The notes below the pieces were generated by a model. It was not told the DNA's origin. It saw only the letters and a list, made by a program, of their open reading frames with translations, and did not search any database. 64,000 nt of DNA, from positions 6,946,001-7,010,000 of the forward strand of contig CM097885.1 of NCBI GenBank assembly GCA_044892525.1, read 5' to 3'. Made by a program: the position numbers and the translations under genes. The stretch comes from Schmidtea polychroa (Eukaryota). Shown in pieces: positions 20,983 through 55,178 of the stretch (within the stretch, counting starts at the first letter, position 1; each line of letters opens with the position of its first letter).

Positions 20983-21396
20983 TAATCTTATTAGAAAATC
21001 TCCTGTTCAGTTCCTACAATATTCTATGGAATATTTAAAATACCCAATAACTTATTCATTTAAAGTAAATATATTTATATCATTTAATCAAATATTAATT
21101 AAATTTTTTATTAGGAACCTTTAACTTTGAAACAGAGTTTATATAATATACAAGTAGGTAAAATTGGAGATATCGATAGAAAAAATATTTTAGAATTATT
21201 GTTGGCTATCAATAAAAATATTCAATTCAATGAAAACTTTACATTTATGAATTGTGATAAAGATTATGCTTTAGAAAATATTAAAAAAGAAAATGAAAAT
21301 TCACATTTTATGATAAAAATTCAAATTCAGGGTTTTAAAGAAGGAAAAGAAACAATCAGCCCTATATGGAAAATAATTGATACTAATATATTATAA
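20983..21396 (+). CDS. Spliced hypothetical protein (5' partial), orthologue of 43234-43668
   Basis: YLKYPITYSFK | intron 21065-21114 (GT..AG) | EPLTLK..IQG..PIWKI. Confidence 0.75.
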
Positions 21397-21844: not shown

Positions 21845-22225
21845 AAAGATCTTTCATTGACTTCAACTACGCTAAACAATGTTGCCCAGATGTTTTTGTC
21901 AATGGACTTTGATAACGAATTTTATTATATTCAATTGGCATTAACAGTGGTTGAAGTTTTGATATTAATAGAGGATAATAAAACCCCATGGGATCAAATG
22001 CATATATTTTTTCCGGTTTCACAAAAACTGCGAGCCAATGCTCTCCCTTGAGATTACAAGATTGAGTATTTACAATTAAAGCCTTGTTTACATCAATATA
22101 TGGTATTTTATCTAATGGAAAAACTCCAAGAAATTCAGCTCCGAACAATCTTCGACCTATATATTCAATCTGAATAGAACTATTATCAATAAATTAAAGT
22201 AATAAAAATGAAATTCTTACTTCAT
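21845..22225 (-). pseudogene. Adenain-like protease, spliced and inactivated
   Basis: ATGAA | intron 22180-22220 | ..HWLA..FDPMG. Catalytic TCG changed to TSG; W changed to a stop. Confidence 0.8.
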
Positions 22226-24769: not shown

Positions 24770-25892
24770 TTATTTAATCAATTGGTTTTCAGATATCCAG
24801 CTAGGATGTTTATAACCATGCCATTTCACATAGTATTGTTTATATTTCCCGTCTGATTTAGATTTTAAAATCTCTTGAATTCTGAAGATTGTGGGTGATG
24901 GAATGACTTGCAGTTCTGGTTCGTAGAATATGCCACTGACTTGATCGTTTTCATTATCTGTAATAAAGTACATGACCGGATTTTGATTAGTATCTATTTT
25001 CGATATTTTAAAAACTTCATCACTCCAATTGTTATCAAAATTCTTGATGAATAGAGAAGCACTGATTTTACTTATTCTAACATGGTCTCCTACTTTATAT
25101 TTCGGCTTTTTTGTTTTTGATTTATCTTGTTGTGATATCCAAGTATCAATATTATTTGTTGAATAAATATCAATTGGTCTCATTCCATTTATTCCTCTAT
25201 GAGGTGAAAAATTGTAATTGTAAATTATTTTCGACAATACATTTATCCACGTTTTATTGCCTTGATATACAAAATATTTTTTCAAACGATCTGTTAAAGT
25301 ACGATTGAATCTTTCCACGTGTGCTGCTTTATATTGTGAAAATACTGAGTAATGATTTATTCCTTTGATAATTTCTTTAACTTTGCTATTATAAAATTCT
25401 TTACCTAAATTTAAAATTAATTGAAATTATTTAATTTATAATTTTACCCAAATCTGTTTGTAAATTACGAGGCTGTCCGTCAGCAAATAATGTTTTTAAT
25501 GCATCAGCTATTTCATTAGCTGATTTAGATTTTGTTGGGATAGCACGAGTGTATCTACTAAATACATCAATACATGTCAAAATATATTTGTATCCTTTAT
25601 TAATTTTTGAAAATGGAATCATTTCCATTAAATCCATTTGCCATAAATCATTAACACCAAATGTTTTATAAGATCTCGTGGGGAATCTTTTTAACATTGG
25701 TTTATTTAGACTGTACGCTAATTGATTAGATAACCATTTTTGAGTTTCTTTCTTTGATTTATTTACTCTTTTTGCAAGTTTTTCTACACCACCAAAACCA
25801 TCTGGATCTTTAGGGTTTGTCCAAATGGTTTTGAGTTTTTTCTCTAATATTTTTTTCTTTGATTTGACCTTTTTGGAAAATGTTTCCTTCAT
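24770..25892 (-). CDS. rve integrase with C-terminal chromodomain, spliced (intron 25405-25447)
   Basis: WQMDL, IDVFSR, QTDLG|KEFYN, VERFNRTL, YYVKWHGY..SWI. Confidence 0.88.
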
Positions 25893-30199: not shown

Positions 30200-30942
30200 C
30201 CATTTCCTCATTCAATTCTTCTATTTCTGCTCTGTTCTCCGCCTCTTTCCTTTCAATATTGCACAATTTCACCTACAATCATAAATATCAATTAAATTAA
30301 TTACAAATAAAATTTACATTGATATTATCAACTTGTTGTTTGAATTGCGTCATTTCTCCTTTCAATTCGATAATTTCGTTACGCAATTTCATATTCTCAT
30401 CTCATTGCTTGCATCTCATTGCATAAATTACTGATCTGATCAATCAATAATTTGCTGTGGCCTTCATTGTTCTCATTGAGATGGGCTTTCATTTCGTCTT
30501 TTACCACCTCATTCATTTCACATCCAATTCTATTGAATGGGCATCTGATTGGCTACTTGTTGCATGTTCTTATATGGCTCTCCATCATGCACAACTCGGT
30601 TTTGAATTCACAATTTTGCATTGGACATTTTACAATGACTTCAGATATTTTTAAATTCACTGAATGATCCACAGAAAATTCTTTAGTGAAAAGAATCGTT
30701 AGAACTTCACAATATTTTGCTGCTCCTGGACAGAATTTATCTTTTCCTTCCAAATAATGCTCAATGCAATCAGAACAAAAGTGACACCCGCAAGGAGCTT
30801 GGCAAGCTTTTATCATTAAACATTTGCAAATTCTGCACATCAATTCATTGCTGATTTCATTATCAAATTCAAATTTATTTCTCTTCATCATTTCCCATAT
30901 GCTTGAAAACATTTTATCTAAAATTAACAAAATTTTCAACAT
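30200..30942 (-). pseudogene. TRAF-like RING/zinc-finger host pseudogene
   Basis: CRICKCL..PCGCHFCSDC..FCPG RING; VKCP..C..H..C; after an in-frame TAG, PIRCPFNRIGC. Confidence 0.75.
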
Positions 30943-36148: not shown

Positions 36149-36684
36149 AGTAGAGGGATAGCGGCCCACTAAACCAGCGGCCCTCTAGGACAAAGACATA
36201 CCCCCTCCCCTCCCCCGCCATTTTATTTTTTTTTCAAGGTCAAATTTTAAACAAAGACATATGACTCATCAAGGTCACTGAAACAAAGACCATGACTCAC
36301 CCGATGACTCATTCAAGGTCATATGACTCATCCGATGCCTCATTCAAGGTCATATGACTCACCCAATGACTCATTCAAGGTCATATGACTCATCCGACGA
36401 CTCATTCAAGGTCATATGACTCATCCGATGACTCATTCAAGGTCATATGACTCATCCGATGAGTCATGCTAAATTTTTTAAAATTTAAATTCTCAGAGTT
36501 CCCGCCAATGGTTTTTTATTATTTAATAGCTCATTCGAAAGATATTTGAATGGTGAGTATTTGAGACCATCGAAGGTCTATGGAGGTTCAATAACCTTCA
36601 AAGAGTTCAATGGTATTGGTTACACTCAACAGCTCACAAGGGTATTATTATTACTATTATTATAATTATTATTATAATTATTAA

Positions 36685-36778
<94 letters not shown>

Positions 36779-36818
36779 ATTATTAATATTATTTTTATTG
36801 TTATTATTATTATTATTA

Positions 36819-36909
<91 letters not shown>

Positions 36910-36917
36910 TTTATTAC

Positions 36918-36997
<80 letters not shown>

Positions 36998-38853
36998 TTT
37001 ATTTAAAAAATGTTTAAACTTGAAAACTATCACATGTTTTCAAAATAATAATAAAAATACAAATATTAAAATTATTATTACGATTATACTGCTGCCGTAA
37101 TTTTTTTGCTGCAACTTTTGATTACGCAATTTTTCAGACTATAGTGAAGGGGTCTCGATGGTCCTGGAATTTTCAATACAAAAAAATTTTTTCAATACAA
37201 AAACGATGGTCCTGGAATTTTCAATACAAAAAAATTTTTTCTATACAAAAACGATGGTCCTGGGATTTTCAATACAAAAAAATTTTTTCTATACAAAAAC
37301 GATGGTCCTGGGATTTTCAATACAAATAAAATTTTTTCAATACAAAAAGGTGGTCTCACTAAAAAAGCATGGATTTTTCAGACTATAGTGAGGTGAGTCT
37401 CTTGGTCCTGGGATTTTCAATACAAAAAAAAATTTTTCTATACAAAAACGATGGTCCTGGGATTTTCAATACAAAAAAAAATTTTTCTATACAAAAATCC
37501 GACTACCAATAAAAAAGCATGGATTATTCACGCTATAGTGAAGGGGTCTCGATGGTCCTGGGATTTTCAATACAAATAAATTTTTTTCAATAGAAAAAGG
37601 TGGTCTAATCTAAAAAAGCCAAGGATTTTTCAGACTATAGTGAGGCGGTCTCGATGGTCCTGAGATTTTCAATACAAATAAAATTTTTTCAATACAAAAA
37701 CGATGGTCCTGGGATTTTCAATACAAATAAAATTTTTTCAATAGAAAAAGGTGGTCTACACTAAAAAAGCCAAGGATTTTTCAGACTATAGTGAGGGGGT
37801 CTCGATGGTCCTGAGAAATAGGTGGTCTACACTAAAAAAGCCAAGGATTTTTCAGACTATAGTGAGGCGGTCTCGATGGTCCTGAGATTTTCAATACAAA
37901 TAAAATTTTTTCAATACAAAAACGATGGTCCTGGAATTTTCAATACAAATAAAATTTTTTCAATACAAAAACGATGGTCCTGGGATTTTCAATACAAATA
38001 AAATTTTTTCAATAGAAAAAGGTGGTCTACACTAAAAAGCCAAGGATTTTTCAGACTATAGTGAGGTGAGTCTCCTTGGTCCTGAGAAATAGGTGGTCTA
38101 CACTAAAAAACGTGTTAAATTTTTCAATTAAAGTAAATAATGGTTCTAAAAAATTAAATTAAAGTAAATAATGGTCCTAAAAAATTAAATTATAGTAAAT
38201 AATGGTCCAAATTTTAAAATTAAAGTAAATTATGGTCCTAAAAAATTAAATTAAATAATGGTCCTAAAAAATTAAATCAAAGTAAATTATGGTCCTAAAA
38301 ATTTAATTAAGGTCCTAAAAATTAAATTAAAGTAAATTAAGGTTCTAAAAATTAAATTAAAGTAAATAATGGTCCAAATTTTTCAATTAAAGTAAATAAT
38401 GGTCCTAAAAATTAAATTAAAGTAAATTAAGGTTCTAAATTTTAAATTAAAGTAAATTAAGGTTCTAAAAAATTAAATTAAAGTTAATTAAGGTCTAAAT
38501 TTTTAAATTAAGTAATCAATGGTAAAAAATTTTAAATAAGTAAATTAAAGTAATAATTTTTAAATTAAGTAATCAATGGTAAAAAAAAAAATTTAAATAA
38601 GTAAATTAAAGTAAGATTTTAAAATTTATTAACAAAAAATAGAAGGTGTTTGAGAATTGAAATTTTTTAATGAAAATTTTTATGGAATAATTTTTTTAAG
38701 TAATTTTTTAATGGAAATTTTTATGGAATAATTTTTTTTTAAGTAATTTTTAATGGAAATTTTTATGAAATATTTTTCAACGATAAATTTAGATGGAAAA
38801 ATTTAAGATAATTTCAATGAAATATTTTTCAAAGTCAAATGAAAATTTAAATG

Positions 38854-38894
<41 letters not shown>

Positions 38895-38968
38895 TATCAA
38901 CCAAATACATAAAAATGAACTAGACACATAAAAATCTACCAAATAACAAATGTAAAGATATAAAATTT
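36149..38968. repeat. Left TIR (~2.8 kb): 31-bp, (TTA)n, ~42-bp and ~27-bp arrays
   Basis: Reverse complement of 52331-55178 apart from repeat-number differences. Confidence 0.9.
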
Positions 38969-41900
38969 AGTCAATAAAATTAGTCCTCATCGGACAAAAT
39001 AACGTCATCGATATCGATGTCATCTTCTTCATTAAATTCTTCCTCATCTTCTCCATCATTTGTCCATCATTTTCTGAAACATCTTCTCCAACATTTTCTG
39101 AAACATTTTCTGCAACAATTTCTCCAACATTTTCTCCAATATTTAATTCACTTAATCTTACATGCCCATATGCAAGACTAGCATTTTTCCCCACCCAAAC
39201 CCTTTTGTCATCTTTGTTAGTTAGTGCTATTTTTGTGTTTTTAATTGTAAAAATTTGATGATTTTTGCTTGTTATTTTAGTCTGAGGAACCGAAAAAATC
39301 TGGTTAGTGTTATAACAATCCAGGTATGACTGATGTTTTATGTCACTACCTTTCAATGTTACACCTTTAGCCTTTTTTGTTTCCTCATCACCCAACAAGC
39401 TATAACATTTAGGTCTAAGAAAAACCCACTCCTTATATTTAAGACCTTTATTCTCGTCTTTGAACTTTCCAATGACAGAATCAAGGTTCTTACTATATAA
39501 GGAATGACAACTATTGTAATTGGAAGTATCCAATAAATTATCTCGAACCATTGCAGGTAAAAGAACCTCAAGTTTGCAGTTAATGACTTCGAGGAAAAAA
39601 GAATCTGTATCACCTGCAACGATATTAATTTTACAATTAAACTCATTGCGAAATGATTCCAGATCCTTATATTGCAATTCATACATTCTAAGTTTAGATA
39701 GATCAAGTACAGATTGACCAATGTAACTCGGTCTATCTAAACATATAGAATCTGAATTCAATAGTGCTGCAATTAAATTATCTGCTATTTTAATAGATTT
39801 TTTAAAAGTCGGTTTTGACGAATATTTAACTAATTTACCGGCAGTTGTACAAAGACGAAGATTCATTCTTCTCTTTAAATTTTCAACTGTTTTGCCGTAT
39901 AAACTATTATTTTGCAATTTATAATAATTTTTATCTAAGTTATTTACGCTTTTTGATCTTAATTCGGTATTTGTATCTATATATTTTTTAAAAATTGGTG
40001 ATTGCTTAAATCTTACACCCTATTTACACGTGTTACTTTAACACCAAGTTCTAAATATAATTTTAATAATCTCCAATGAATAACATAATTAGATTTTGGA
40101 AGATGAGTTAATAATAATTTTTCAACCTTAGACCCAGCAGGTTTCATTTTTTCAGCAGCTACAGGGAAATCATCCAACTTATCATGAAGCTCAGAAGGAA
40201 TTACAAGATCAACTTCAAGTGTGTATCCATAAGACAAAGATTCAAGATTTAAATTCCTACATTCATCCATTATTTTATCAAATCCATCAAGAACCCAACA
40301 AAATTCGCCACAAGGTAATGATTGACTTAAAGCCCACCCATAAAGATTATTAATATCTATATAAAGTAACTCGGTGTTCTCGTCGGTTTTTACGTAATGC
40401 TTATTCACAAAAGTAAGACCGCCTCTTATTCCACCCTCATAAAAGCTAAACATTTCGTTTTCAGTTATGAGTTCAATTGGTTCATTTAAAGACATTAATG
40501 CAGAAGACCAAGACATGCCTGGAATTCCGAAATAATTCAAAGGTTCTAATCTATTGTGAGCAATTGATTTCAACCTAAACTGATGAAAGAAATCAGCCAA
40601 AAGAAAACAATCAAGTTTTAGGTAGATCATCATATAATCTAATAAAGTTCTGCAATTAGATTCTACCCAAATCTCCTGAGCTTTTTCATACTCAAGCTCA
40701 GTGACACCCTCCCAGATTGGTGGTAATTCATACGTAGTTTGTAGAACATCTAAAGAAGTGGCGAAATTATAAGGGAAGATTCCTTTTTCACTTACTATGG
40801 TGCCAGAAAAAGCAGAATTAGTAAAAGGCAAAGAATTCAAAGTTTTGACTGCTTTAGCCAAAGAATCATTGACAAATTGATATGAATCAATGAATCTTAG
40901 GCTAATTTTGCCTATATGAGCAATCAAAGATATAAATTTTTCCGTAGTTATTGGGATGCACCCTAAATTCCAATTTTTAAATTTATTTAATCCATATTTA
41001 AGTATATGATGCATATCGTATCCCTTCAAGTTGTGAAATACGATAGGCAAAATTTTATTTATTTTTCTATTTACGTTACATGTGCTACAAGCTGCACCCA
41101 AGTATTTGCCCGTAAAATGATCGTGATCTCTAACAGGATCCACGATAGATTTCAAACAAAGATAACAAACCGTTGAATTAATGAATTGTTGTTGCTCATT
41201 TTTAGTTAATTTAATCATTGGTTTCCTACCCATTTTATAATAAAAAGGAAGAACCTTATTTAATGCTATATCCTCTATAGCACTTAAAAAACTCTCGACG
41301 CAATCTAAACCTATGAACTGCTGATAAGATTTAGATCCGTCAAAGTTATTTACTAGTAAAAGACCGGCAGATATTGGCATGTGTCGCTGAAAATGATCAT
41401 TATCACAAGGTAAAATAGCCTCAAAATCGGCATAAACTACGAAAGGAGGAGTTACTGTTTTCGACCAGTCAGTAAACTGTAAGAATTTATTTTGAGGGAA
41501 AGTATAAAGAGTAGTTCCTAATTGATTGCGTTTGCATAATATTTCATGTTTTTCTAGTGCGTTTCTATTTTTAAAACCATTTAAACATCGATGACACCAT
41601 ATTGATTGTATGCGTGTAGGACAACTAGTGTTTATGCGGCAATTCAGTAACCTATTTAAATTGCTTATAGCAATGTAATGGAAATTGTTCCCTTTATTTA
41701 ATAAAAGTAAATTAATTACTGTTCCATTTAAAACTTTGGAACGATGTATAATGTCTAAATGGGGGTGTTTTAAAACGTAATTATCTATTAATTGTTTGTT
41801 ATTGTCATAAGAAAAAACATTAATTATTAAACCAGGATTTTTGGCCTCGAATTTTCTAATATCTTTTAATTTCATTGGTAAGTCTAATGGATTATATATT

Positions 41901-43102
41901 AACTCAGATAAATTATAACTAGATGTCCTATTTCTAGCATAACTACTAACCTCATCATATTTTAAAATAGCTAAAATGCTATATAAAAAACATGAATCGT
42001 CGGTGTTTTTTACATTAATTAAGCAATTTTTATTTTTTAGACAAGTAGGTAGTTCAATGAAACTCTTACCACTTAATCTACTTAGCCTACTTATCTTTGT
42101 TATGGTGAAGTGAATTTCAGTTATTTTTTTTATGATCCAGCTACTTCCTAACTCTGTGATATTACTTATTTTCTCGTTTAGTTCCCTAATGCCTTCGTCA
42201 AAAAATGAGGCAGTTAAAGGTTTTGCGTAATTGGAAATATTATTAACCTTTATTTCCCCGTCTTTTTCAAATTCGATTGTTATTCCGAATTGAATTTTGA
42301 CGGAGCCTAATTCGTTAATAATATCTCGTAATTTTATAATTAATTGTTCTGGAAATATTATTTCCTTTATATTCAAGTTACTTGTATTTAGACTTAAAAT
42401 TTGATGTGTACCCCTTAAATCTTTTTGTACTATGGGTACATTACCTCCTATTTGTACATTAGTAGTCGAAGAGTCGAGTGAAAGATTATCAAATTCATTA
42501 TTGGGTTCACCTACATCCCAAGAGTCGAGTGAAAGATTATCAAATTCATTATTGGGTTCACCTACATCCCAAGAGTCGAGTGAAAGATTATCAAATTCAT
42601 TATTGGGTTCACCTACATCCCAAGAGTCGAGTGAAAGATTATCAAATTCATTATAGGATTCATCAACTAATCCGACCTGGGATTCAACAAAAGGCAATCC
42701 ATCATTGGATTCAGCAAAAGACAATCCATCATTGGATTCAACAAAAGACAATCCATCATTGGATTCAGCAAAAGACAATCCATCATTGGATTCATCAACT
42801 AATCCGACCTGGGATTCAACAAATGTATTTAATTTAATTTTTTTATTAGTAGTATTTATTTCAATAGTTGAAGGACGTTTAAAAATAACATCTTTTTTAG
42901 AATTGAACCTATCTAAATGTTGTTTATGCTTATTATAAAAGACGCTATATGTTAAGGGCTCGCTAATCTTACATATGGGGCATATAAAAAAAGTTTTATT
43001 ATAGTATTTTTTAGAATAATAATTCTCCATTATAGAATGGCAATTATTATGTTCTTTCGACGAACAATAATTTGGGTAAAGTATACCTAAAAATATATAC
43101 AT
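38967..43102 (-). CDS. Protein-primed PolB, two ORFs joined by a frameshift at ~40015-40020
   Basis: YADFEA, DHDH.TG, FHNLKGYD, FIDSYQF, KGIFPY, YIDINNLYG, NNSLYGK, GDTDS, RPKCY. True start uncertain; possible splice acceptor at 43087. Confidence 0.93.
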
Positions 43103-43233
43103 TTAAAAATTTGGCTAAAACATTTGATAAAAATAATACTATTAAAATTTTCTTATAATTTTGCATGTATGCATCCAATCAAAATTAATTATTTGCTATA
43201 AATGATAATTTAATGAAATAAATTTAACAAAAA

Positions 43234-43668
43234 ATGTCTACTATAAATAGTATCCTATTAGAAGAAAATAGTACATCAGTTATAGGTATGGTATGTAAAC
43301 CTCCTATTCAATTCCTTCAATATAATATGTACTATTTGAAATATCCTATTACTTATTCGTTCAAGGTAATTTTTTTTATTTAATTATTTAATATTAATTT
43401 GTTATAGGAACCAGTTAATTTAAAAACATGTCAATTCAATATTCAAATTGGAGATATTGGGGAAGAAGATAGAAAAAATCTTGGAGAAATTCTTAAATTA
43501 ATTAATAAAGAAATGATTTTTAATGAAAAATTTACATTTATCAATTGTGAAAAAGGGTGTAAATTAGACGAAGATAAAAAATCAAAAGTTCGAATACTTA
43601 TTCAAGGAGTCAAGATAAATGGAGTTATAATTAAACCAATTTGGAAAATTACAAATGTTTTTGAATAA
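43234..43668 (+). CDS. Spliced 130-aa hypothetical protein (intron 43366-43407)
   Basis: Exons of 132 and 261 nt give an open frame. Intron position is conserved in element B. Confidence 0.8.
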
Positions 43669-43744
43669 ATATTTAAGTGTTATTTTAAATGTTGTTGAAA
43701 AAATTTTAAAGTTAATAAGTATTTAATAAGGGTCAGATTATTAT

Positions 43745-44830
43745 TAAAGAGTACTGCATGCTCACTGCAGACTATTATGTAGCTACGTGCTCACTGTAGA
43801 CTACATTATTATATTAAAGACTACTGCATGCTCACTGCAGACTATTATGTAGCTACGTGCTCACTGTAGACTACATTATTATTATCATTATAAAAAAAAA
43901 TTTGCGAGGGATTTCCCCTTATTTCAAAATAAATATCATTAAAAAATATCATTAATAATAATTTCATTATAAAATATTATTTAAAAATGTTAATAATTTC
44001 ATCATTATATAAAAAATTTTACGAGGGATTTTCCCTTATTTCAAAATAAATATCATTAAAAAATATCATTAATAATAATTTCATTATAAAATATTATTTA
44101 AAAATGTTAATAATTTCATCATTATATAAAAAATTTTACGAGGGATTTCCCCTTATTTCAAAATAAATATCATTAAAAAAATATCATTAATAATAATTTC
44201 ATTATAAAATATTATTTAAAAATGTTAATAATTTCATCATTATATAAAAAAAATTTTTTACGAGGGATTTACCCTTATTTTTACTCTTAAGATAAAATTT
44301 TATTAAAAATATTAATAATCATTTTTAAAAATATTAATAATTTCATTATAAAATATTATTTAAAAATTGATAAAAATACTTACATTTGTCATTTTTCATT
44401 GTTTCATTATTAGCTTTTTTCATTGTTTCATTTTTATCATTTTTCATTGTTGCATTATTAGCTTTTTTCATTGTTGCATTTTTAACATTTTTCATTGTTT
44501 CATTTTTAACATTTTTCATTGTTGCATTTTTAACATTTTTCATTGTTGCATTATTATTCATTTTTGATTTTTATCTAAAAATAATTAAATTTTAATAATT
44601 AAAAAATAAAATTCTTACAATCCTTGGTACTAGCAAATTATGACCAAATTTTAAAAACAAATCATTTATATACTTCTTCTTCTACTTAATACATTACGTA
44701 ATAATTAAAGGATTAAATTGATACCATGCGTAATAATTAAAGGATTAAATAACTTACATAATAATTAAAGGATTAAATAACTTACATAATAATTAAAGGA
44801 TTTAATACCTTACATAATAATTAACTTAAT
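43745..44830. repeat. Internal non-coding tandem arrays (2x~68 bp, ~115 bp x3-4, 24 bp, ~28 bp)
   Basis: TACTGCATGCTCACTGCAGAC..; CGAGGGATTT.CCCTTATTT..; TTTTTCATTGTTGCA; ATAATTAAAGGATT. Confidence 0.9.
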
Positions 44831-44960
44831 TAAAGATTTAGTTTAATAATCAACTAAAATTTAAATTTTAATAATCAATTATATTGAATTAATAATCAAC
44901 TAAAAATTTATTGAAATAATCAGCTAAAATTTATTGAAAACAACTTTTTATTATAAAAAT

Positions 44961-45339
44961 TTATTTCATTGACTTTAACCAAGCCAAACAATGTTGTCCA
45001 CATGTTTTTGTTATAGGATTTTGGTAACGTATTCGATTGTATTCAATTGGCATTGACATTGATTGTAGTTTATTGATTAATATAGGTGGATAATAGAATC
45101 CCATTGGATCAAATGCATATATTTTGTCTGGTTTCACGTATACTGCAAGCCAATGTTCACCATTCAGATTAGCAGATTGAGTATTTACAATTATTGCTTT
45201 GTTGACATCTAAATAAGGTATTTTGTCTAATGGGAAAACACCTAGAAATTCTTTTCCTAGTAATTTTCTTCCGATAACATGTATCTGAATAGAACTAAAT
45301 TAATAATAATTAAATAATTTAAATTAATTCTTACTTCAT
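44961..45339 (-). CDS. Adenain-like protease, spliced (intron 45295-45334), 112 aa
   Basis: ATGAA + 334 nt exon gives MNSIQIH..GEHWLA..FDPMG..YQ..TCGQHC. Missed by the ORF track. Confidence 0.88.
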
Positions 45340-45373
45340 ATTTGATTAATTGATTTTCGATATTTGGTTTATA

Positions 45374-46597
45374 TTATACCAAAACAGTACGAGTAGATGT
45401 AATTTGAATTTCTTTTTCAAAAACTCCATATACGATTACAGAAACAGCTTCAGTAAGTGAAGATGCGAATTTAATATCTAATCGCAAATTTCCACTTTGT
45501 GGTAACTGACTTTGATGAAGATCAAAATCTGGTGCCAATACGAATGTAAAGAATGGATACTTGCTCTTAAAATCAGACATGGTGATACCACAATTCATAT
45601 TTTTATTTAGATAACCCATATTTCTAATAATCGATTGCATATAACTTGTACTATAATCATCTTTCTCAAAATCTTGACTATATTTTTCGCGATAATCACT
45701 TCCTTTACTTAAAGTTATGGACTTGACATTAAAGTGATCAAATAAAGAAAATGATTCTGAAAACGATCCACTAAATCTTTTACTAGATTGAAATGCAACA
45801 AGTATAAAATTAGGTAGTCGTCTATCTCCAAATATTTGTTCTTTATAAAAAGAGGAAGAACCAATAGGTAATGAGAAATCAACAACTTCTTTGCTTCTTA
45901 AAGGATAAATTGCATTTTTGGTAGACAGACCAATTTGATGTCCTGCCAAAACCGATGGTTCAACACGAACTCTTCTAACCATTAATTTTGCGTCTAATAA
46001 TAAAATTTTCGGTTCAATTTTCGCACAAGTTAAACTAAGTGTTGGATTTGATCTTGTTAATTTAATTTGAACACTAACACCTGGTAGTAAATATTTAGGT
46101 TGATCAAAGAAATCAAATTGAAGTGGGGAACATAAAGAAAAGGATTTTGATTTTTCAATCCATGTTTTTCTCGTAAGATCTTTGTTAGTATACCCCATTC
46201 CACCTAAAGATGTTCGTTTAGTATCTCCGTCATAATTTATAAGTGTTTCAATTAATGCTTTGTGGGCAAATCTATCATTTGATCCTTCAACTTTGATTGA
46301 ATTAAAAATTAATTCAACATCTTTAAAAAGAGTTTGGAAGAAGAAATTATTTGGAATTACTTCTGATTCGCCTAAATTCTCACCTAAATTATTAACAACT
46401 TTCAATTGAATATATAACAAAGTATCATTCAAATCTAAATATTCAGTCTGCGATCCATTTATGTAAAATTGAATCGAAGAAGAACCAGCATCTGTAATTG
46501 AATTTCTTGGGTATACATCTTCAAATGCTCCATGTTCAATCACTGCTTGGGGAGAAGGTCTATCAAAAAGACATAATTCTGATTTAGCACTAATCAT
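45374..46597 (-). CDS. Major capsid protein (Polinton PY type)
   Basis: KSELCLF..Q..IE, YLDLNDTLLY, QPKYLLPGV, AIYP, GNLRLDIKF. Confidence 0.92.
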   Translation of the reverse strand: MISAKSELCLFDRPSPQAVIEHGAFEDVYPRNSITDAGSSSIQFYINGSQTEYLDLNDTLLYIQLKVVNNLGENLGESEVIPNNFFFQTLFKDVELIFNSIKVEGSNDRFAHKALIETLINYDGDTKRTSLGGMGYTNKDLTRKTWIEKSKSFSLCSPLQFDFFDQPKYLLPGVSVQIKLTRSNPTLSLTCAKIEPKILLLDAKLMVRRVRVEPSVLAGHQIGLSTKNAIYPLRSKEVVDFSLPIGSSSFYKEQIFGDRRLPNFILVAFQSSKRFSGSFSESFSLFDHFNVKSITLSKGSDYREKYSQDFEKDDYSTSYMQSIIRNMGYLNKNMNCGITMSDFKSKYPFFTFVLAPDFDLHQSQLPQSGNLRLDIKFASSLTEAVSVIVYGVFEKEIQITSTRTVLV

Positions 46598-46992
46598 TTT
46601 TCAAAGATGGTACCATATCCTTTCATTCTTTTGTTTATATGTTTCTTCATAATTTTTCGGCGTTTAAGTATTCCGCCTTTTTGTTCTTTATCATTTTTAA
46701 ATACATCGGATACTTTATTAATTACTTCAGGTAAATGTTGCATCACAGCTGGTAATGATTCTTTAATTTCAGAAATTGCATTTGATTTTAAAGCAGGCAA
46801 GATATTTGCATTGTTATTTATTACATCATTAGCTGTTTTCATACCAAAATTTCCTATTCGTTTAAGAATTGGAAGTGCAAATCTACCTATTGTCTTCAAC
46901 CAACCGGTTCCATATTGTTTACCAACAAAATATGGTAAATCACCACCCGATTGGTTACTACTATAAAAATGTATTATGTCAGGATTACTCAT
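46594..46992 (-). CDS. Putative virion core protein
   Basis: QSGG..QYGTGWLKTIGRFALPILK, basic C-terminus; sits between penton and MCP. Confidence 0.75.
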   Translation of the reverse strand: MSNPDIIHFYSSNQSGGDLPYFVGKQYGTGWLKTIGRFALPILKRIGNFGMKTANDVINNNANILPALKSNAISEIKESLPAVMQHLPEVINKVSDVFKNDKEQKGGILKRRKIMKKHINKRMKGYGTIFEK

Positions 46993-48001
46993 TTATTTTA
47001 CGAAAATGTAATGTCAAGTATGTTTTATCTTCTTTTCCAAATATATATTTTCCACTATCATCTCGTATATTGATTTCTATATTGTTTATATATGAAGACG
47101 ATACAGGTAAGTACATTGGATTCTTTTCAATTATTTGTACTAAATCATCTTTTTTATGTTTTTCCACCCAAATACATTTCAAAAGAGGGACCAATGTATC
47201 ACCAACAATAATTGGTTCGATAATATTTGTATAGATCATCAATTGTTGATTGCGTTGTAATACTTCAGGTTCTTTAAAACCAATAATAAGTTTGTCAGTA
47301 TATGCTTCTTCTAATAAACCTAAACTATTAGCTAAAAATTTACTAAATTGAACTTTACTGACATCATCATCCATTACAATTTTAACGATTTTTCCTTTTT
47401 GAATATCAATAGATTTAAATGGACGAGGATAAAAGAGTGATAGTTGATCATTTATTTGTGAAAGATCTGTAATGATATTTTCTTCGAATGTATCTGTATA
47501 CTCGACATCGTAATAATATTGTATAGTTAATCGAATTGTATCAAACTTTATTTTTCGATTATTTGGAGGAATAGTGATTTGGTTCAAGGTTTTTTTAAAA
47601 GTTATTTCTTTTTCTGAAAATCCCAATTTTTGCGCTTCTTTAATACTATCGAATTCTACTTTAAAAGGAAAATATTTACAATTAATGTTCAATGTATTTC
47701 CATCAATATATATTAAATAAAATGGAGAGTCGTGACTGATTGTATATTCATTTTTTTCTTGGTTAAAGTAAAAGTATTCATAACTTGTATGTAATACACT
47801 TTTACTATATTTGACATTTGAATTACTGTAAAAAGGAAAATAATTATACACAAAGGTAAAGTCCATGAGAGCTACTTCCCATTCACCATCCAAGTAAATA
47901 GGATTTTGAAATTCAACATTAAATTTACCAGCTTCATTATTTGGATGAGTCTGAGGACAACTATTAGAAGGTAAATTCACATAAAAATCTTTTTTAATCA
48001 T
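46985..48001 (-). CDS. Minor capsid protein (penton) paralogue 2
   Basis: FYVNLPSNS..WEVAL..IYTNII..VGDTLVPLL..LHFR. Confidence 0.9.
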   Translation of the reverse strand: MIKKDFYVNLPSNSCPQTHPNNEAGKFNVEFQNPIYLDGEWEVALMDFTFVYNYFPFYSNSNVKYSKSVLHTSYEYFYFNQEKNEYTISHDSPFYLIYIDGNTLNINCKYFPFKVEFDSIKEAQKLGFSEKEITFKKTLNQITIPPNNRKIKFDTIRLTIQYYYDVEYTDTFEENIITDLSQINDQLSLFYPRPFKSIDIQKGKIVKIVMDDDVSKVQFSKFLANSLGLLEEAYTDKLIIGFKEPEVLQRNQQLMIYTNIIEPIIVGDTLVPLLKCIWVEKHKKDDLVQIIEKNPMYLPVSSSYINNIEINIRDDSGKYIFGKEDKTYLTLHFRKINE

Positions 48002-49019
48002 TTATTTTACGAAAATGTAATGTCAAGTGTGTTTTTGTATCTCTACTAAATTTTATTAATTTTCCACTATCATCTCGTATATTGATTTCAATGTTGTTTA
48101 TAGAAGAATTAGAAATTGGTAGATACATTGGATTCTTCATTTCTAGTTGGACAATTTCTCCTTGTTCATATTTTTTTATCCAAATGGATTTCAATAACGG
48201 AACTCTTACGTCTCCAACAGTCAATGGTTCGATAATATTCGAGTAAATAAACATTTGTTGATGATGATTAAATAATTTTGGAATTTTTGTTCCAATAATT
48301 TCTTTCTCTGTAAATGTTTGTTTCTTTAATCCCAATGTTTTTGTTAAATTTTTATCAAAGATTATTGATGAAATGTTATCAGCAAGACTTATTTTAACCA
48401 ATTCATTATTTTGTATTTTTAAATCTTTAAAGGGAGACGGATTAATTGTCATTAACTGACCATGTATTTCAGATAAAGTATTGATGTATAGTTCATCTTC
48501 GAAATAATGTTCAAATTTTGTTTTTTCAACAACACTTATAATTATACCAAATTGATCAATTGTTTTATCTTCTGTAAATTTTGGTAATTTAATTCGCAAA
48601 TGATCACTATCACTAATAACCGATACTGATTTTAATCCAAATTTAATAGCATGTTCAAAATCTGGAAACGTTATTTTAAATGGAACATGTGGACAAACAA
48701 CAACCAAATTCTCATATCTTTCAATGAACATGTCAACTTCAGGAGTATTTTTAGGATTTATTACTTCAAAGGTTCGATTTGAATTATTTATTCTAAAATA
48801 TTTAATTTCTTCATCCATCTTTACTTTTTCATATTGTATCAATGAATTACTGTAATAAGGAAAAGTATTATACACAAAGGTAAAGTCCATGAGAGCTACT
48901 TCCCATTCACCATCCAAGTAAATAGGATTTGGAAATTCGACATTAAATTTACTAGCTTCATTATCGGGGAAAATAAGAGGACAACTATTAGAAGGTAAAA
49001 TAATATAAAAATCTTTCAT
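47994..49019 (-). CDS. Minor capsid protein (penton) paralogue 1
   Basis: Same motifs; middle domain orthologous to 23733-24764. Confidence 0.9.
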   Translation of the reverse strand: MKDFYIILPSNSCPLIFPDNEASKFNVEFPNPIYLDGEWEVALMDFTFVYNTFPYYSNSLIQYEKVKMDEEIKYFRINNSNRTFEVINPKNTPEVDMFIERYENLVVVCPHVPFKITFPDFEHAIKFGLKSVSVISDSDHLRIKLPKFTEDKTIDQFGIIISVVEKTKFEHYFEDELYINTLSEIHGQLMTINPSPFKDLKIQNNELVKISLADNISSIIFDKNLTKTLGLKKQTFTEKEIIGTKIPKLFNHHQQMFIYSNIIEPLTVGDVRVPLLKSIWIKKYEQGEIVQLEMKNPMYLPISNSSINNIEINIRDDSGKLIKFSRDTKTHLTLHFRKIND

Positions 49020-49024
49020 AATAT

Positions 49025-50173
49025 TTATTTAATCAATTGATTTTCGGATATCCAAGATGGAGTTTCATATCCATGCCATTTAACATAGTATTGTTTATAT
49101 TTACCATCTTTTTTGGTTTTTAAAATCTTTTGAATTCTAAATATTGTAGGAGCTGGAATTACTTGGAGTTCTTGTTCATAGAATTTACCAGTGATTGGTT
49201 TGTTTTCATGATCAACTATCACATACATGACAGGATTCTGTTTTGTATCGATTTTAAAAATTTGATATACTTCATCACTCCAATTATTATCAAAGTTTTT
49301 GATGAATGGTGAAGAATTGATTTTACTAATTCTTACATGATCACCAACCTTGTATTTCGGTTTATTGATTTTTTCTGACTTTGTTTGATTTTTAGTAAAA
49401 TCAGCAGGTGTTTGTCCTTTTAATCCTCTGTGTGGTGAATGATTGTAACTGAAAATAATTTTTGGCAAAACATTTATCCAAGTTTTATTACCTTGATATA
49501 CAAAATATTTTTTCAAGCGTTTTCTTAAAGTTCGATTAAATCGTTCTACGTGAGCAGCTTTGAACTGAGAAAATACCGAGTAATGGTTTATTCCTTTGAT
49601 AACCTCTTTAACTTTGCTGTTATAAAATTCTTTACCTAAATCATATATTTAAAAATTAATTAATTAAATTTAATTACCTAAATCCGTTTGTAAATTAATA
49701 GGTTTACCATCTGCAAACATTTCTTTTATCGCATCAGCCATTTCATTTGCAGATTTAGTTTTTGTAGGAACAGCACGAGCATATCTATTAAAAACATCTA
49801 TACAAGTCAGAATATATTTGTACCCCTTGTTAATTTTTGAATAAGGTATCATTTCCATCAAATCCATTTGCCATACATCATTGTTTCCAATTGTTTTGTA
49901 TGGTCTTGTTGGAAAACGTTTCAACATTGGTTTATTTAAACTATATGCTAATTGATTAGATAACCATTTCTGAGTTTCTTTCTTTGAATTATTCACTCGT
50001 TTTGTTAATTTTTCTACGCCACCAAAACCATCTGGATCTTTTGGGTTTGTCCATATGGTTTTTAACTTTTTCTCTATTGTTTTCACTTTTTTCACTTTTG
50101 TTTTCACATTTGTTTTCACTTTTGTTTTCATTTTTTCCACTTTTGTGTTGGTTTTGTGATACGTTTCCTTCAT
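49025..50173 (-). CDS. rve integrase with chromodomain, spliced (intron 49636-49677)
   Basis: WQMDL..QTDLG|KEFYN..HVERFNRTL..YYVKWHGY..SWI. Confidence 0.9.
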
Positions 50174-50243
50174 TATTACAACAAGTTGTCAAAATATTAA
50201 AATCTACAATATTTTTATTTGGTAATGAACTCTTGATACCCAT
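49989..50243 (-). CDS. Small overlapping ORF with MGxxxS start and CC motif
   Basis: MGIKSS..NILTTCCNNEGN; conserved as NILTSCCNNEGN in element B. Confidence 0.45.
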   Translation of the reverse strand: MGIKSSLPNKNIVDFNILTTCCNNEGNVSQNQHKSGKNENKSENKCENKSEKSENNREKVKNHMDKPKRSRWFWWRRKINKTSE

Positions 50244-50569
50244 TAAGAACTTAATGATGAGATTGCACTAATTGCAGATAAGACTATAGGAATTAATGCA
50301 CCCAAGAACCCTCCTTTTTGTTTATATATTATCTTTCTCATTAGACGACGATTTTTTGTATCAACTAGAGATAAAAGTGATCTTTTATGTCTTTGCAATA
50401 CTAATCTTTTAGCTTTAGTTATATTTACATTACCGCGGACAACATTTATAATAACTTAAAGTAAATCATCAATAACAAATGATGGAAAAGACTGTAAAAT
50501 TGATATTCGTTTCGAATTTGGTGCCTTTATTAAAGCATTAAAATATGGTAAACTCCGTTCAAATTTCAT
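50243..50569 (-). pseudogene. Basic protein with pX-like C-terminus and one in-frame stop (50456-50458)
   Basis: MKFERS..DDLL*VIINVVRGNV..KQKGGFLGALIPIVL. Confidence 0.75.
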
Positions 50570-50598
50570 TATTATTATTAATTTACGCGACGGATTGT

Positions 50599-50751
50599 TT
50601 ATAATTTGATCCACTTCTTGATTTGTTTCTTAGTTTTTGTACTTTTTGTACTTTTTGATCCACTTTTTGTTTTCTTTGTACGTTTTGTTTTCTTGGTAAT
50701 TTTCTTCGAAACACTTGGAAGATTTTTAACAACTACTTTTTTAAATGACAT
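50599..50751 (-). CDS. 50-aa lysine-rich protein, putatively DNA-condensing
   Basis: MSFKKVVVKNLPSVSKKITKKTKRTKKTKSGSKSTKSTKTKKQIKKWIKL; fills the intergenic slot. Confidence 0.6.
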   Translation of the reverse strand: MSFKKVVVKNLPSVSKKITKKTKRTKKTKSGSKSTKSTKTKKQIKKWIKL

Positions 50752-50770
50752 GATTAATTTTATTTAGTTT

Positions 50771-51394
50771 TTAGTTTTGTTTATAAATCGTAACACCGTT
50801 TATATTAAAAATATCAGTTCTAATACGCATATCATCTGGACATTGTTGTGTAAAATCAAAAAATAAATATCCATGAGGAATTTTTGTTGCATCTTGGAAT
50901 GAATCAATCAAAAATTTTCTATTATTTGGATAAGCTTGTCTTGCAAGAAAATCTATTATTGTTTGATCTCTAGGATTTTTGAAAATAATTAAATATTGGA
51001 CATTTAAATTACGTGTTCTATGACTTCCACCTTGATGAAAAAGATTTTGTGTAATGAAAATAACTGTAACTCCACAATGTCTACTGATTTTTGTAAATAA
51101 ATTATTAAAATCTTTTTCTTTATTTGCTTCCTGGTACAGATCATCGATAATAATAACATCACCTTGGCGTAATCTAGATGACCAATTTTTATCAAATCCT
51201 TTAATTATTGTCATTTTTAATTTACAGAAACTGTTTTGAGTCAATCCATGTTCTTCATCTGCACCTCGATGCCAATATATTTTATTAAATTTAGATTTAA
51301 ACATGTTTGATTGTAATAAATTACATACAAATAAAGTTTTCCCGCTTCCACTAGGTCCTACTATTTGATATACTGCGTCATTTCTTAATTCCAT
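50771..51394 (-). CDS. Packaging ATPase (A32/FtsK-like)
   Basis: GPSGSGKT, IIIDDL, SRH, ITQNLF, FKNPRD, PHGYLFFD. Confidence 0.95.
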   Translation of the reverse strand: MELRNDAVYQIVGPSGSGKTLFVCNLLQSNMFKSKFNKIYWHRGADEEHGLTQNSFCKLKMTIIKGFDKNWSSRLRQGDVIIIDDLYQEANKEKDFNNLFTKISRHCGVTVIFITQNLFHQGGSHRTRNLNVQYLIIFKNPRDQTIIDFLARQAYPNNRKFLIDSFQDATKIPHGYLFFDFTQQCPDDMRIRTDIFNINGVTIYKQN

Positions 51395-51444
51395 TTTTTA
51401 ATTAAATTATTTTATTTAATTTGTTTATAATTACAATAATTAGA

Positions 51445-51921
51445 ATGATCAGCAACATTAATTATAGAGGAAGATGTGTAGTTAATGGAATGAAGTTTCC
51501 ATCAGGAAAACCTCAACATGTCGTGGACAGAAGTGGAAAATATCCAATTTTATTCTTCAAGAGCGGGAAATGTAGGATAATGGGATGTAAGAAACCATTA
51601 CAGGAAGGCGATCTCAAATATCACATTCAAGATTTACAAATCCAATCAATTACATTAACGCTAGATATGGGTACATGCAGTGATTTAAATGCATTGTCAA
51701 GGAAAACCGATAGTTACTACGAGCCTGAAATATTTCCAGCTTTACGTATTCTCAAGTATAACCCCCTATGTGTAAATGTTTTTTCAAGTGGGAAAGTTGT
51801 TATATTAGGGATTAAAACATTTGATTATTTTAATCAAATTCAAGAAATTCAGAAATTCATTAAATCATTAACTATAAATATCACAACAAATGAAGAAATA
51901 TTGGAATATTTATTAAGTTAA
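51445..51921 (+). CDS. TATA-binding protein (TBP)-like protein
   Basis: Two TBP half-repeats: ILFFKSGKCRIMGCK and YEPEIFPAL..VNVFSSGKVVILGIK (host TBP reads YEPELFPGL..LIFVSGKVVLTGAK). Confidence 0.85.
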   Translation: MISNINYRGRCVVNGMKFPSGKPQHVVDRSGKYPILFFKSGKCRIMGCKKPLQEGDLKYHIQDLQIQSITLTLDMGTCSDLNALSRKTDSYYEPEIFPALRILKYNPLCVNVFSSGKVVILGIKTFDYFNQIQEIQKFIKSLTINITTNEEILEYLLS

Positions 51922-51984
51922 TTAAATTAATTTAATTAATTGTGTTTAAATTAACTGAATATCTACAATAACAAAAATTCAAAA

Positions 51985-52332
51985 ATGGATGACGATAAGC
52001 AAGCTTACATATTCCAGACTATATTAACGAAGATGGAAGAATTGTTCCCGAATATAAAGAACAGACTTTCATATTGTGCTCCGGAATTATTAGCTTATAG
52101 AATCAAGCAATTAACAGGGATCAATATAGAAGAACTTATACGAAGACATTTCGAATCTGTACAAGAATCAATATTTAAATGCATAGACGATTGTGAAGTA
52201 TGTATGGATCCGATGAAATTACCTTGTCCGTTTAGATGTAGATGCTGCCAAGAATATAAGATGAAAGAAGTTGTTCATATTTTACTAGCAGAATTAAGAA
52301 GAGCTTATTACAAGCAAATATTGGATGAATAA
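51985..52332 (+). CDS. Cys-rich hypothetical protein, possibly Zn-binding
   Basis: 115 aa, CIDDCEVC..PCPFRCRCC; AAAATG start; ends at the TIR boundary. Confidence 0.65.
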   Translation: MDDDKQAYIFQTILTKMEELFPNIKNRLSYCAPELLAYRIKQLTGINIEELIRRHFESVQESIFKCIDDCEVCMDPMKLPCPFRCRCCQEYKMKEVVHILLAELRRAYYKQILDE

Positions 52333-54288
52333 ATTTTATATCTTTACATTTGTTTGTGTTTTATGTGTCTAGTTCATTTTTATGTATTTGGTTGATATAT
52401 TATTACTATTTTTATTATTCCATTAAAATTTTCATTTGACTTTGAAAAATATTTCATTGAAATTATCTTAAAATTTTCCATCTAAAATTATCATTGAAAA
52501 ATATTCCATAAATATTTCCATTAAAAATTACTTAAAAAAAATTATTCCATAAAAATTTCCATTAAAAATTACTTAAAAAATTATTCCATAAAAATTTTCA
52601 CTAAAAAATTTCAATTCTCAAACACCTTCAACTTTTTGTTAATAAATTTTAAAATCTTACTTTAATTTACTTATTACATTACATTAATTTACTTATTTAA
52701 AAATTATTACTTTAATTTACTTATTTAAAAATTATTACTTATTTAAAATTTTTTACCATTGATTACTTAATTTTAAATTTAGACCTTAATTAACTTTAAT
52801 TTAATTTTTTAGAACCTTAATTTACTTTAATTTAATTTTTTAGAACCTTAATTTACTTTAATTTAAAATTTAGAACCTTAATTTACTTTAATTTAATTTT
52901 TAGGACCATAATTTACTGTATTTGAAAAATTTAGAACCATAATTTACTTTTAATTTAATTTTTAGAACCATAATTTACTTTAATTCAAAAATTTGGACCA
53001 TAATTTACTGTATTTGAAAAATTTAGAACCATAATTTACTTTAATTTAATTTTTAGAACCATAATTTACTGTAATTTAATTTTTTAGAACCATAATTTAC
53101 TTTAATTGAAAAAATTTGGACCATAATTTACTTTAATTCAATTTTTAGAACCATTATTTACTTTAAATTTAATTTTTGGACCATTATTTACTGTAATTTA
53201 ATTTTTTAGAACCATTATTTACTTTAATTGAAAAATTTGGACCATAATTTACTGTATTTGAAAATTTGGACCATAATTTACTTTAATTTAATTTTTAGAA
53301 CCATTATTTACAGTAATTGAAAAATTTGGACCATAATTACTTTAATTTAATTTTTAGACCCATAATTTACTGTAATTTAATTTTTAGGACCATTATTTAC
53401 TGTAATTTAATTTTTTAGAACCATTATTTACTTTAATTTAATTTTTAGGACCATAATTACCTTATTTGAAAAATGTTGACCATAATTTACTTTAATTGAA
53501 AAATTTGGACCATTATTTACTTTAATTGAAAAATTTACCACGTTTTTTAGTGTAGACCACCTATTTCTCAGGACCAAGGAGACCACCTCACTATAGTCTG
53601 AAAAATCCTTGGCTTTTTTAGTGTAGACCGCCTTTTTGTATTGAAAAAATTTTATTTGTATTGAAAATCCCAGGACCATCGTTTTTGTATAGAAAAAATT
53701 TTATTTGTATTGAAAATCCCAGGACCATCGTTTTTGTATTGAAAAAATTTTATTTGTATTGAAAATCTCAGGACCATCGAGACCGCCTCACTATAGTCTG
53801 AAAAATCCTTGGCTTTTTTAGTGTAGACCACCTTTTTCTATTGAAAAAAATTTATTTGTATTGAAAATCCCAGGACCATCGAGACCCCTTCACTATAGCG
53901 TGAATAATCCATGCTTTTTTATTGGTAGTCGGATTTTTGTATAGAAAATTTTTTTTTGTATTGAAAATCCCAGGACCATCGTTTTTGTATTGAAAAAATT
54001 TTATTTGTATTGAAAATCTCAGGACCATCGAGACCGCCTCACTATAGTCTGAAAAATCCTTGGCTTTTTTAGTGTAGACCACCTTTTTCTATTGAAAAAA
54101 ATTTATTTGTATTGAAAATCCCAGGACCATCGTTTTTGTATTGAAAAAATTTTTTTGTATTGAAAATCCCAGGACCATCGAGACCCCTTCACTATAGTCT
54201 GAAAAATTGCGTAATCAAAAGTTGCAGCAAAAAATTACGGCAGCAGGGGAGCTACTATCTACCTACTAATAATGATGATAATAATGAT

Positions 54289-54335
<47 letters not shown>

Positions 54336-54341
54336 TAATAA

Positions 54342-54392
<51 letters not shown>

Positions 54393-54502
54393 GTAATAAA
54401 GGTAATAATAATAATAATAATAAGTAATAAAGGTAATAATAATAATAATAATAATAATATAATAATAATAATAATAATAACAATAAAAATAATAATAATA
54501 AT

Positions 54503-54578
<76 letters not shown>

Positions 54579-55178
54579 TTAATATTAATAATAATAATTA
54601 TAATAATAGTAATAATAATACCCTTGTGAGCTGTTGAGTGTAACCAATACCATTGAACTCTTTGAAGGTTATTGAACCTCCATAGACCTTCGATGTTCTC
54701 AAATACTCACCATTCAAATATCTTTCGAATGAGCTATTAAATAATAAAAAACCATTGGCGGGAACTCTGAGAATTTAAATTTTAAAAAATTTAGCATGAC
54801 TCATCGGAGGAGTCATATGACCTTGAATGAGTCATCGGATGAGTCATATGACCTTGAATGAGTCATCGGATGAGTCATATGACCTTGAATGAGTCGTCGG
54901 ATGAGTCACATGACCTTGAATCAGTCATCGGATGAGTCATATGACCGTGAATGAGTCATCGGGTGAGTCATATGACCTTGAATGAGTCATCGGATGAGTC
55001 ATATGACCTTGAATGCGTCATCGGGTGAGTCATGGTCTTTGTTTCAGTGACCTTGATGAGTCATATGTCTTTGTTTAAAATTTGACCTTGAAAAAAAAAT
55101 AAAATGGCGGGGGAGGGGGGAGGGGGTATGTCTTTGTCCCAGAAGGCCGCTGGTTTAGTGGGCCGCTATCCCTCTACT
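52331..55178. repeat. Right TIR of element C, with an internal terminus at 54267
   Basis: Mirror of 36149-38968. CTATCTACCTACT at 54255-54267. Confidence 0.9.

Follow-up and report, generated by a model that had tools for sequence, protein, structure and literature searches.

Can the core genes of a mobile Polinton (Maverick) element be interrupted by spliceosomal introns that are passed on with the element? We looked at this question in a 64,000-nucleotide (nt) stretch of the AT-rich, 781-Mb genome of the flatworm Schmidtea polychroa (assembly GCA_044892525.1, contig CM097885.1, positions 6,946,001 to 7,010,000; the whole stretch is called the window below), which holds several nested Polinton/Maverick elements. 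In a tree, a host chaperonin gene falls among flatworms (SH-aLRT 99) but not with the parasitic ones, in keeping with a free-living species. Two of the elements, element B (37090..54267; its left terminus is eroded and the start is approximate) and element C, a partial relative of B at 21-26 kb with shared core proteins 70-86% identical, carry short GT..AG inserts in the integrase, the protease and a third gene of unknown function. Judged by their sequence features, these inserts are very probably spliceosomal introns.

Inserts in three genes of two related elements

A preliminary description of the window had placed six such inserts, and all six were recovered exactly, with an A+T content of 85-93%. 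On the minus strand, the integrase is split at 49636..49677 in B (42 nt, phase 1, with an in-frame stop) and at 25405..25447 in C (43 nt, phase 1), and the protease at 45295..45334 in B (40 nt, phase 2, donor GTAAGA) and at 22180..22220 in C (41 nt, phase 2). On the plus strand, the third gene is split at 43366..43407 in B (42 nt, phase 0), between exons at 43234..43365 and 43408..43668, and at 21065..21114 in C (50 nt, phase 0). The statement that splicing restores the frame holds arithmetically, each retained insert bringing an in-frame stop or a frameshift in all six cases; spliced reads were not seen, and splicing itself is inferred. Element A (about 10-18 kb), a distant type whose integrase is fused to a phospholipase, was said to lack such introns, and its integrase, protease and capsid frames are indeed continuous; stops and frameshifts interrupt its ATPase, in which no GT..AG insert is present.

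Patterns spanning the insertion points matched the genome 932 times for the integrase, 2,384 times for the protease and 276 times for the third gene, while reversed controls gave 0 matches, so the inserts are neither chance occurrences nor assembly errors. The exons on both sides are under purifying selection, although retention would truncate the product or shift its frame in families B, C and a further family, E. The ratio of nonsynonymous to synonymous substitution was 0.04-0.13 and 0.07-0.17 for the two integrase exons (27 of 30 pairs, three being saturated), 0.12-0.27 for protease exon 2 (10 pairs), and 0.24 and 0.25 for the third gene. The inserts change in length by single bases, through all three phases, while exon lengths stay fixed; in the third gene, the inserts of family B measure 39-47 nt between flanks that do not change (as read in the first 100 of the 276 matches). 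No conserved sequence was seen in the three introns beyond the splice sites. The inserts thus have the features of U2-type introns: GT..AG ends, a consensus-like donor, a host-like length and composition (introns of a host chaperonin measure 44-49 nt with 76-91% A+T at six of the 16 junctions tried) and removal that rejoins a conserved frame under selection, the third gene having no intron-less homologue for comparison.

A further intron, overlooked by the preliminary description, is likely at the start of the DNA polymerase gene. An AG at 43087..43088 (minus strand) stands at the conserved polymerase start, and an AG following an AT-rich stretch was found at that place in all eight loci compared (the window, L187, L269, L184, L274, L180, L186 and L196), which suggests a splice acceptor, though no upstream exon was found for it. 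No other split gene came to light in a scan of 128 loci, an insensitive one that also missed a known 40-nt GT..AG insert in the TBP-like gene of an outside relative (L063:376-415). The integrase of that relative has no intron.

Predicted introns, old in the protease and patchy in the integrase

The predicted protease intron follows a start exon of only 5 nt (45335..45339 in B) and precedes exon 2 (44961..45294), which encodes an adenovirus-type cysteine protease (PF00770, E 1.3e-5). Exon 2 has no in-frame ATG before residue 64, which already lies past the catalytic His motif (residue 47), so a usable start of the protease is found only in the 5-nt exon. The intron is intact in 29 of 33 loci, where it measures 36-47 nt, in all three phases, and is damaged or deleted in the other four; its donor is GTAAG(T/A) without exception in the loci read. 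It was present in every family examined in the genome, and a motif search of the genome for an intron-less protease gave two matches, neither within a protease gene. The closest outside relatives, the metagenomic loci L064, L065 and L068 (52-58% identity), have it as well, with 39, 40 and 47 nt and a GTAAGT donor. Among 28 more distant outside proteases, 25 carry an in-frame Met no later than the intron point (upstream DNA was read for one of them). On this distribution, the predicted protease intron is old and fixed. In family B, about 16 protease copies are arrayed in tandem at roughly 4-kb spacing at G000:C2:102217171-102296768.

The integrase is divided into exon 1 (49678..50173, minus strand), which bears the rve domain (PF00665), and exon 2 (49025..49635, minus strand), with the core remainder and a chromodomain. 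The intron sequence is identical in 30/30 fetched B copies, and GT..AG ends are present in 30/30 fetched C copies. When the two exons were translated separately and aligned with uninterrupted homologues, a single residue, the Gly of the QTDxGKEF motif, fell between them in 108 of 118 homologues for B and 109 of 118 for C; this set came from 120 of 282 matches listed, in a search that could return only uninterrupted proteins. Throughout the genome the 932 integrase matches have inserts of 34-64 nt, 23 others have less and 112 are intron-less, a rough ratio since the intron-bearing and intron-less patterns differ in strictness. All 88 outside loci lack the intron (82 with an exact fit, six with alignment offsets of 4-21 nt), among them L064, L065 and L068, which have the protease intron; this sample is biased to uninterrupted genes because two of the four scan patterns span the junction and the best 80 of 460 were retained.

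Four types of insert sequence occupy one identical base, those of B, C, E (40 nt) and D. The family D insert is an (ATT)n microsatellite of 30-63 nt in the loci read (for example L183:2877-2918), which varies in steps of three and is free of stops in frame. Integrases of 376 residues were considered as intron-less candidates and rejected, for the (ATT)n insert lies inside them; annotation would score the family D gene as one continuous open reading frame (ORF) of that length.

In an integrase tree of 41 rows two changes of intron state were needed, and a single clade of intron bearers was rejected (approximately unbiased test, p 0.011). A capsid tree of 25 rows needed two to three changes and placed two loci differently, a conflict that points to recombination. 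By these trees the integrase intron, patchy and apparently younger than the protease intron, underwent at least two gains or losses, parallel gain and gain followed by loss being indistinguishable. In close relatives the intron-less junction reads AG|GT or TG|GT, and such sites are the usual context of intron gain. The direct repeat of 7+4 nt at the insert ends in B could reflect an origin by tandem duplication, but the repeats are 1+5 in C, 5+3 in D and 4+1 in E, lengths that could arise from the splice consensus by itself.

These distributions bear on what had been proposed for the lineage. Supported in it are host-type introns in core genes common to diverged lineages and a protease start that needs the 5-nt exon. 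A survey of intron positions across the family, suggested as a check, agreed for the protease and turned out patchy for the integrase. The idea that integration depends on splicing does not hold clade-wide, because several families of the same genome and the 88 outside loci have no integrase intron; intron-less integrases could also supply the activity in trans.

Probably constitutive introns, and the competing readings

We favour, as likely, the reading that these are ordinary constitutive introns, removed by the host major spliceosome, gained during a long residence in the host and neutral inside their fixed ends. The element would be transcribed in the nucleus by host polymerase II, and long residence in AT-rich hosts would have led to intron gain at splice-site-like positions, followed by free drift between fixed ends. 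The protease intron would go back to a single gain, before the families of this genome split from the 52-58%-identical outside relatives, and would have been kept since. The integrase intron would be later, and its pattern may stem from two gains, from one gain with a later loss, or from reshuffling by recombination.

Several observations weigh against this reading. Comparison with host introns, another suggested check, agreed only in part: many protease introns, at 36-38 nt, fall below the few host introns measured, and of the other chaperonin junctions two gave 57 and 66 nt and eight had no credible intron call. For the third gene no homologue was found beyond families B and C, with no Pfam family and no Atlas match at 0.9, so an intron-less counterpart is lacking (outside contigs were not included in this search). 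Among the joints listed for six runs of Logan contigs (X1-X4 on B; X1, X3, X8 and X9 on C), no spliced joint appeared; the runs were guessed to be RNA and none is recorded as such, and in the comparison on element B its integrase intron was hidden by repeat masking. Contigs of X1 run unspliced through the C protease and integrase introns, and since they also cover intergenic DNA, X1 may be DNA. One X3 contig runs unspliced through the C integrase intron, with only 20 letters beyond it on one side; loose ends in X3 carry poly-T on the sense strand, which hints weakly at transcription. The missing spliced joints do not refute splicing, because contigs drop rare forms.

The same contigs, being the only RNA-like ones seen and all unspliced, would suit a regulated switch, a proposal of the preliminary description, in which most cells or stages retain the introns and splicing is confined to those where the element moves or its particles mature. 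There is a precedent in the third intron of the Drosophila P element, likewise a DNA transposon that has to splice its message to make the mobilising enzyme, for which regulation is proven according to the accessible text of PMC7776569, whereas no regulation was seen here and the integrase intron is missing from sister families. The protease and integrase introns sit where retention would kill the enzyme, the protease intron was kept in every family, as if useful or hard to lose, and in family D retention would add a poly-Ile stretch next to the catalytic Asp of an integrase of full length, a product that could act as an inhibitor. Set against this, a near-consensus protease donor fits constitutive splicing, chance by itself would rarely remove an intron 5 nt past the start codon, the interiors of the introns show no conservation, many families miss the integrase intron, and the unspliced contigs may represent either DNA or nascent RNA. 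With no spliced or differentially spliced RNA obtained and conservation limited to the splice sites, we found no support for the switch and consider it unlikely. Quite unlikely, too, is the wider idea that splicing controls the life cycle of the clade, the 5-nt exon gating the protease clade-wide, the integrase active site being repeatedly interrupted at a single base, and a dead integrase with retained (ATT)n repressing transposition in the manner of the P element.

If the inserts instead stayed in the RNA, ribosomes would have to bypass them or shift frame, or the copies would be dead and moved by the enzymes of intron-less families. The lack of spliced reads would agree with this, as would the matching Gly codons at both ends of the integrase insert, with a stop soon after the first, and the 112 intron-less integrase matches. 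In the protease and the third gene the insert ends do not match and GT..AG is nevertheless kept, the search gave no intron-less protease that could complement, and strong purifying selection on both exons between intron-bearing families is unexpected for dead genes; we regard this account as improbable. Least probable of all, and very much so, is that the inserts are assembly errors, post-insertion decay or introner insertions. One family has a microsatellite as its integrase insert, and introners are reported in dinoflagellate polinton-like elements (accessible text of PMC12166617), which resemble the present case in having spliceosomal-type introns inside proviruses. The dinoflagellate introns are, by that text, transposon-made and mostly post-integration, whereas the flatworm ones are inherited with the element and conserved in position. 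The inserts of the three genes are mutually dissimilar and site-specific, in contrast to introners, which place one sequence at many unrelated sites (the comparison did not extend to a search of the whole genome by intron sequence); each is common to hundreds to thousands of copies, and outside relatives have the protease insert as well. This last account is already largely refuted by the copy numbers and by conservation in contigs of other origin.

Element B and its place among Polintons

Family B is young and recently mobile, as seen from a junction 100% identical in 40/40 scored copies and from 6-bp target-site duplications at 6/10 loci (one with a 1-nt shift; three unresolved). The window copy of B and its duplicate lack the 6-bp duplication. 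By self-BLAST and gene map, B has inner inverted repeats at about 37090-38973 and 52326-54267, and its right end coincides with where other B copies terminate. It is surrounded by a second, outer pair of inverted arms (36149..55178, AGTAG termini, no target-site duplication); these arms, at 36149-36995 and 54267-55178, have different AGTAG termini. Arms, element and flanks are repeated about 275 kb away (L313/L314), showing that the region was duplicated.

Besides the integrase and protease, B has the A32-type packaging ATPase (50771..51394, minus strand, PF04665, no intron) and a protein-primed B-family DNA polymerase (38967..43102, minus strand), for which PF03175 was matched on a sister copy at 59-63 kb, 94-98% identical. 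The polymerase of the window copy is frameshifted near 40016; the frame is open across this break in nine of ten other B loci, the tenth being the duplicate of the window copy. A core-protein gene at 50243-50569 (minus strand) has a stop in the window copy that is absent from 30/30 other B copies. The probable major capsid gene (45374..46597, minus strand, no intron) matches the double-jelly-roll protein of element A weakly in a profile comparison (304 columns, 21%, E 0.006, probability 6%); one of its 11 members matches PF21738, weakly, and a search of solved structures found no match. Two paralogous genes without introns at 46985..49019 (minus strand) are presumably minor capsid genes, a label we take from the remembered Polinton gene order; the pair is in tandem and 46% identical in family B, and the other families fetched have a single gene. 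The TBP-like gene (51445..51921, plus strand, PF00352) has no intron in B.

Elsewhere in the window, a near-perfect inverted repeat of 2,373 nt with a 542-nt spacer occupies 3481-8768, and between elements lies a RING-finger ORF (30553-30942, minus strand, weak PF00097), which to us resembles a host TRAF gene. In the outside contig L065, positions 2-511 have a bacterial look to the eye, which means that the left end may be chimeric, and 663-1260 is what we take to be a phosphatase-like ORF.

In its protein-primed polymerase, rve integrase with chromodomain, A32 ATPase, adenovirus-type protease, capsid-like genes, long inverted repeats with AGTAG ends and 6-bp target duplications, the element resembles animal Polintons of the adintovirus/eupolintovirus type. 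Adenoviruses themselves, a related lineage of nuclear DNA viruses with the same protease family, use the host spliceosome and have a tiny start exon on the polymerase message; they splice long leaders onto polycistronic units, whereas here single host-sized introns of 36-50 nt lie inside individual genes. Unlike in the vertebrate and nematode elements reported, core genes are interrupted here in intact, recently mobile families. Intact vertebrate Mavericks have intronless core ORFs, with the founding paper cited in agreement (PMC8097293), and nematode Mavericks have introns only in cargo genes (10.1101/2022.07.12.499685), as far as the accessible parts of these papers go. A preprint on a Dugesia genome reports a planarian Maverick expansion, with no gene structure given in its accessible text (10.64898/2025.12.11.693146). 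The available portions of PMC10748475, PMC8502044, PMC12220804, 10.64898/2026.07.28.741278, PMC11131425, PMC11244446 and PMC12721341 do not describe such introns. Our literature search turned up no account of spliceosomal introns that are inherited in the core genes of animal Polintons; it left Repbase and supplements outside its scope, where an earlier annotation may exist.

These introns matter for how such elements are found and understood. Where Polintons are detected and judged intact by uninterrupted ORFs, intron-bearing clades would be mis-scored as decayed and their proteases given wrong starts. An intron kept clade-wide would speak for a long history of nuclear, spliceosome-dependent expression, which may limit the possible hosts. 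At the integrase site, intron-bearing and intron-less families occur in one genome, with hundreds of copies each, at a splice-junction-like position, and this would offer a rare natural series for intron gain, intron loss and microsatellite turnover.

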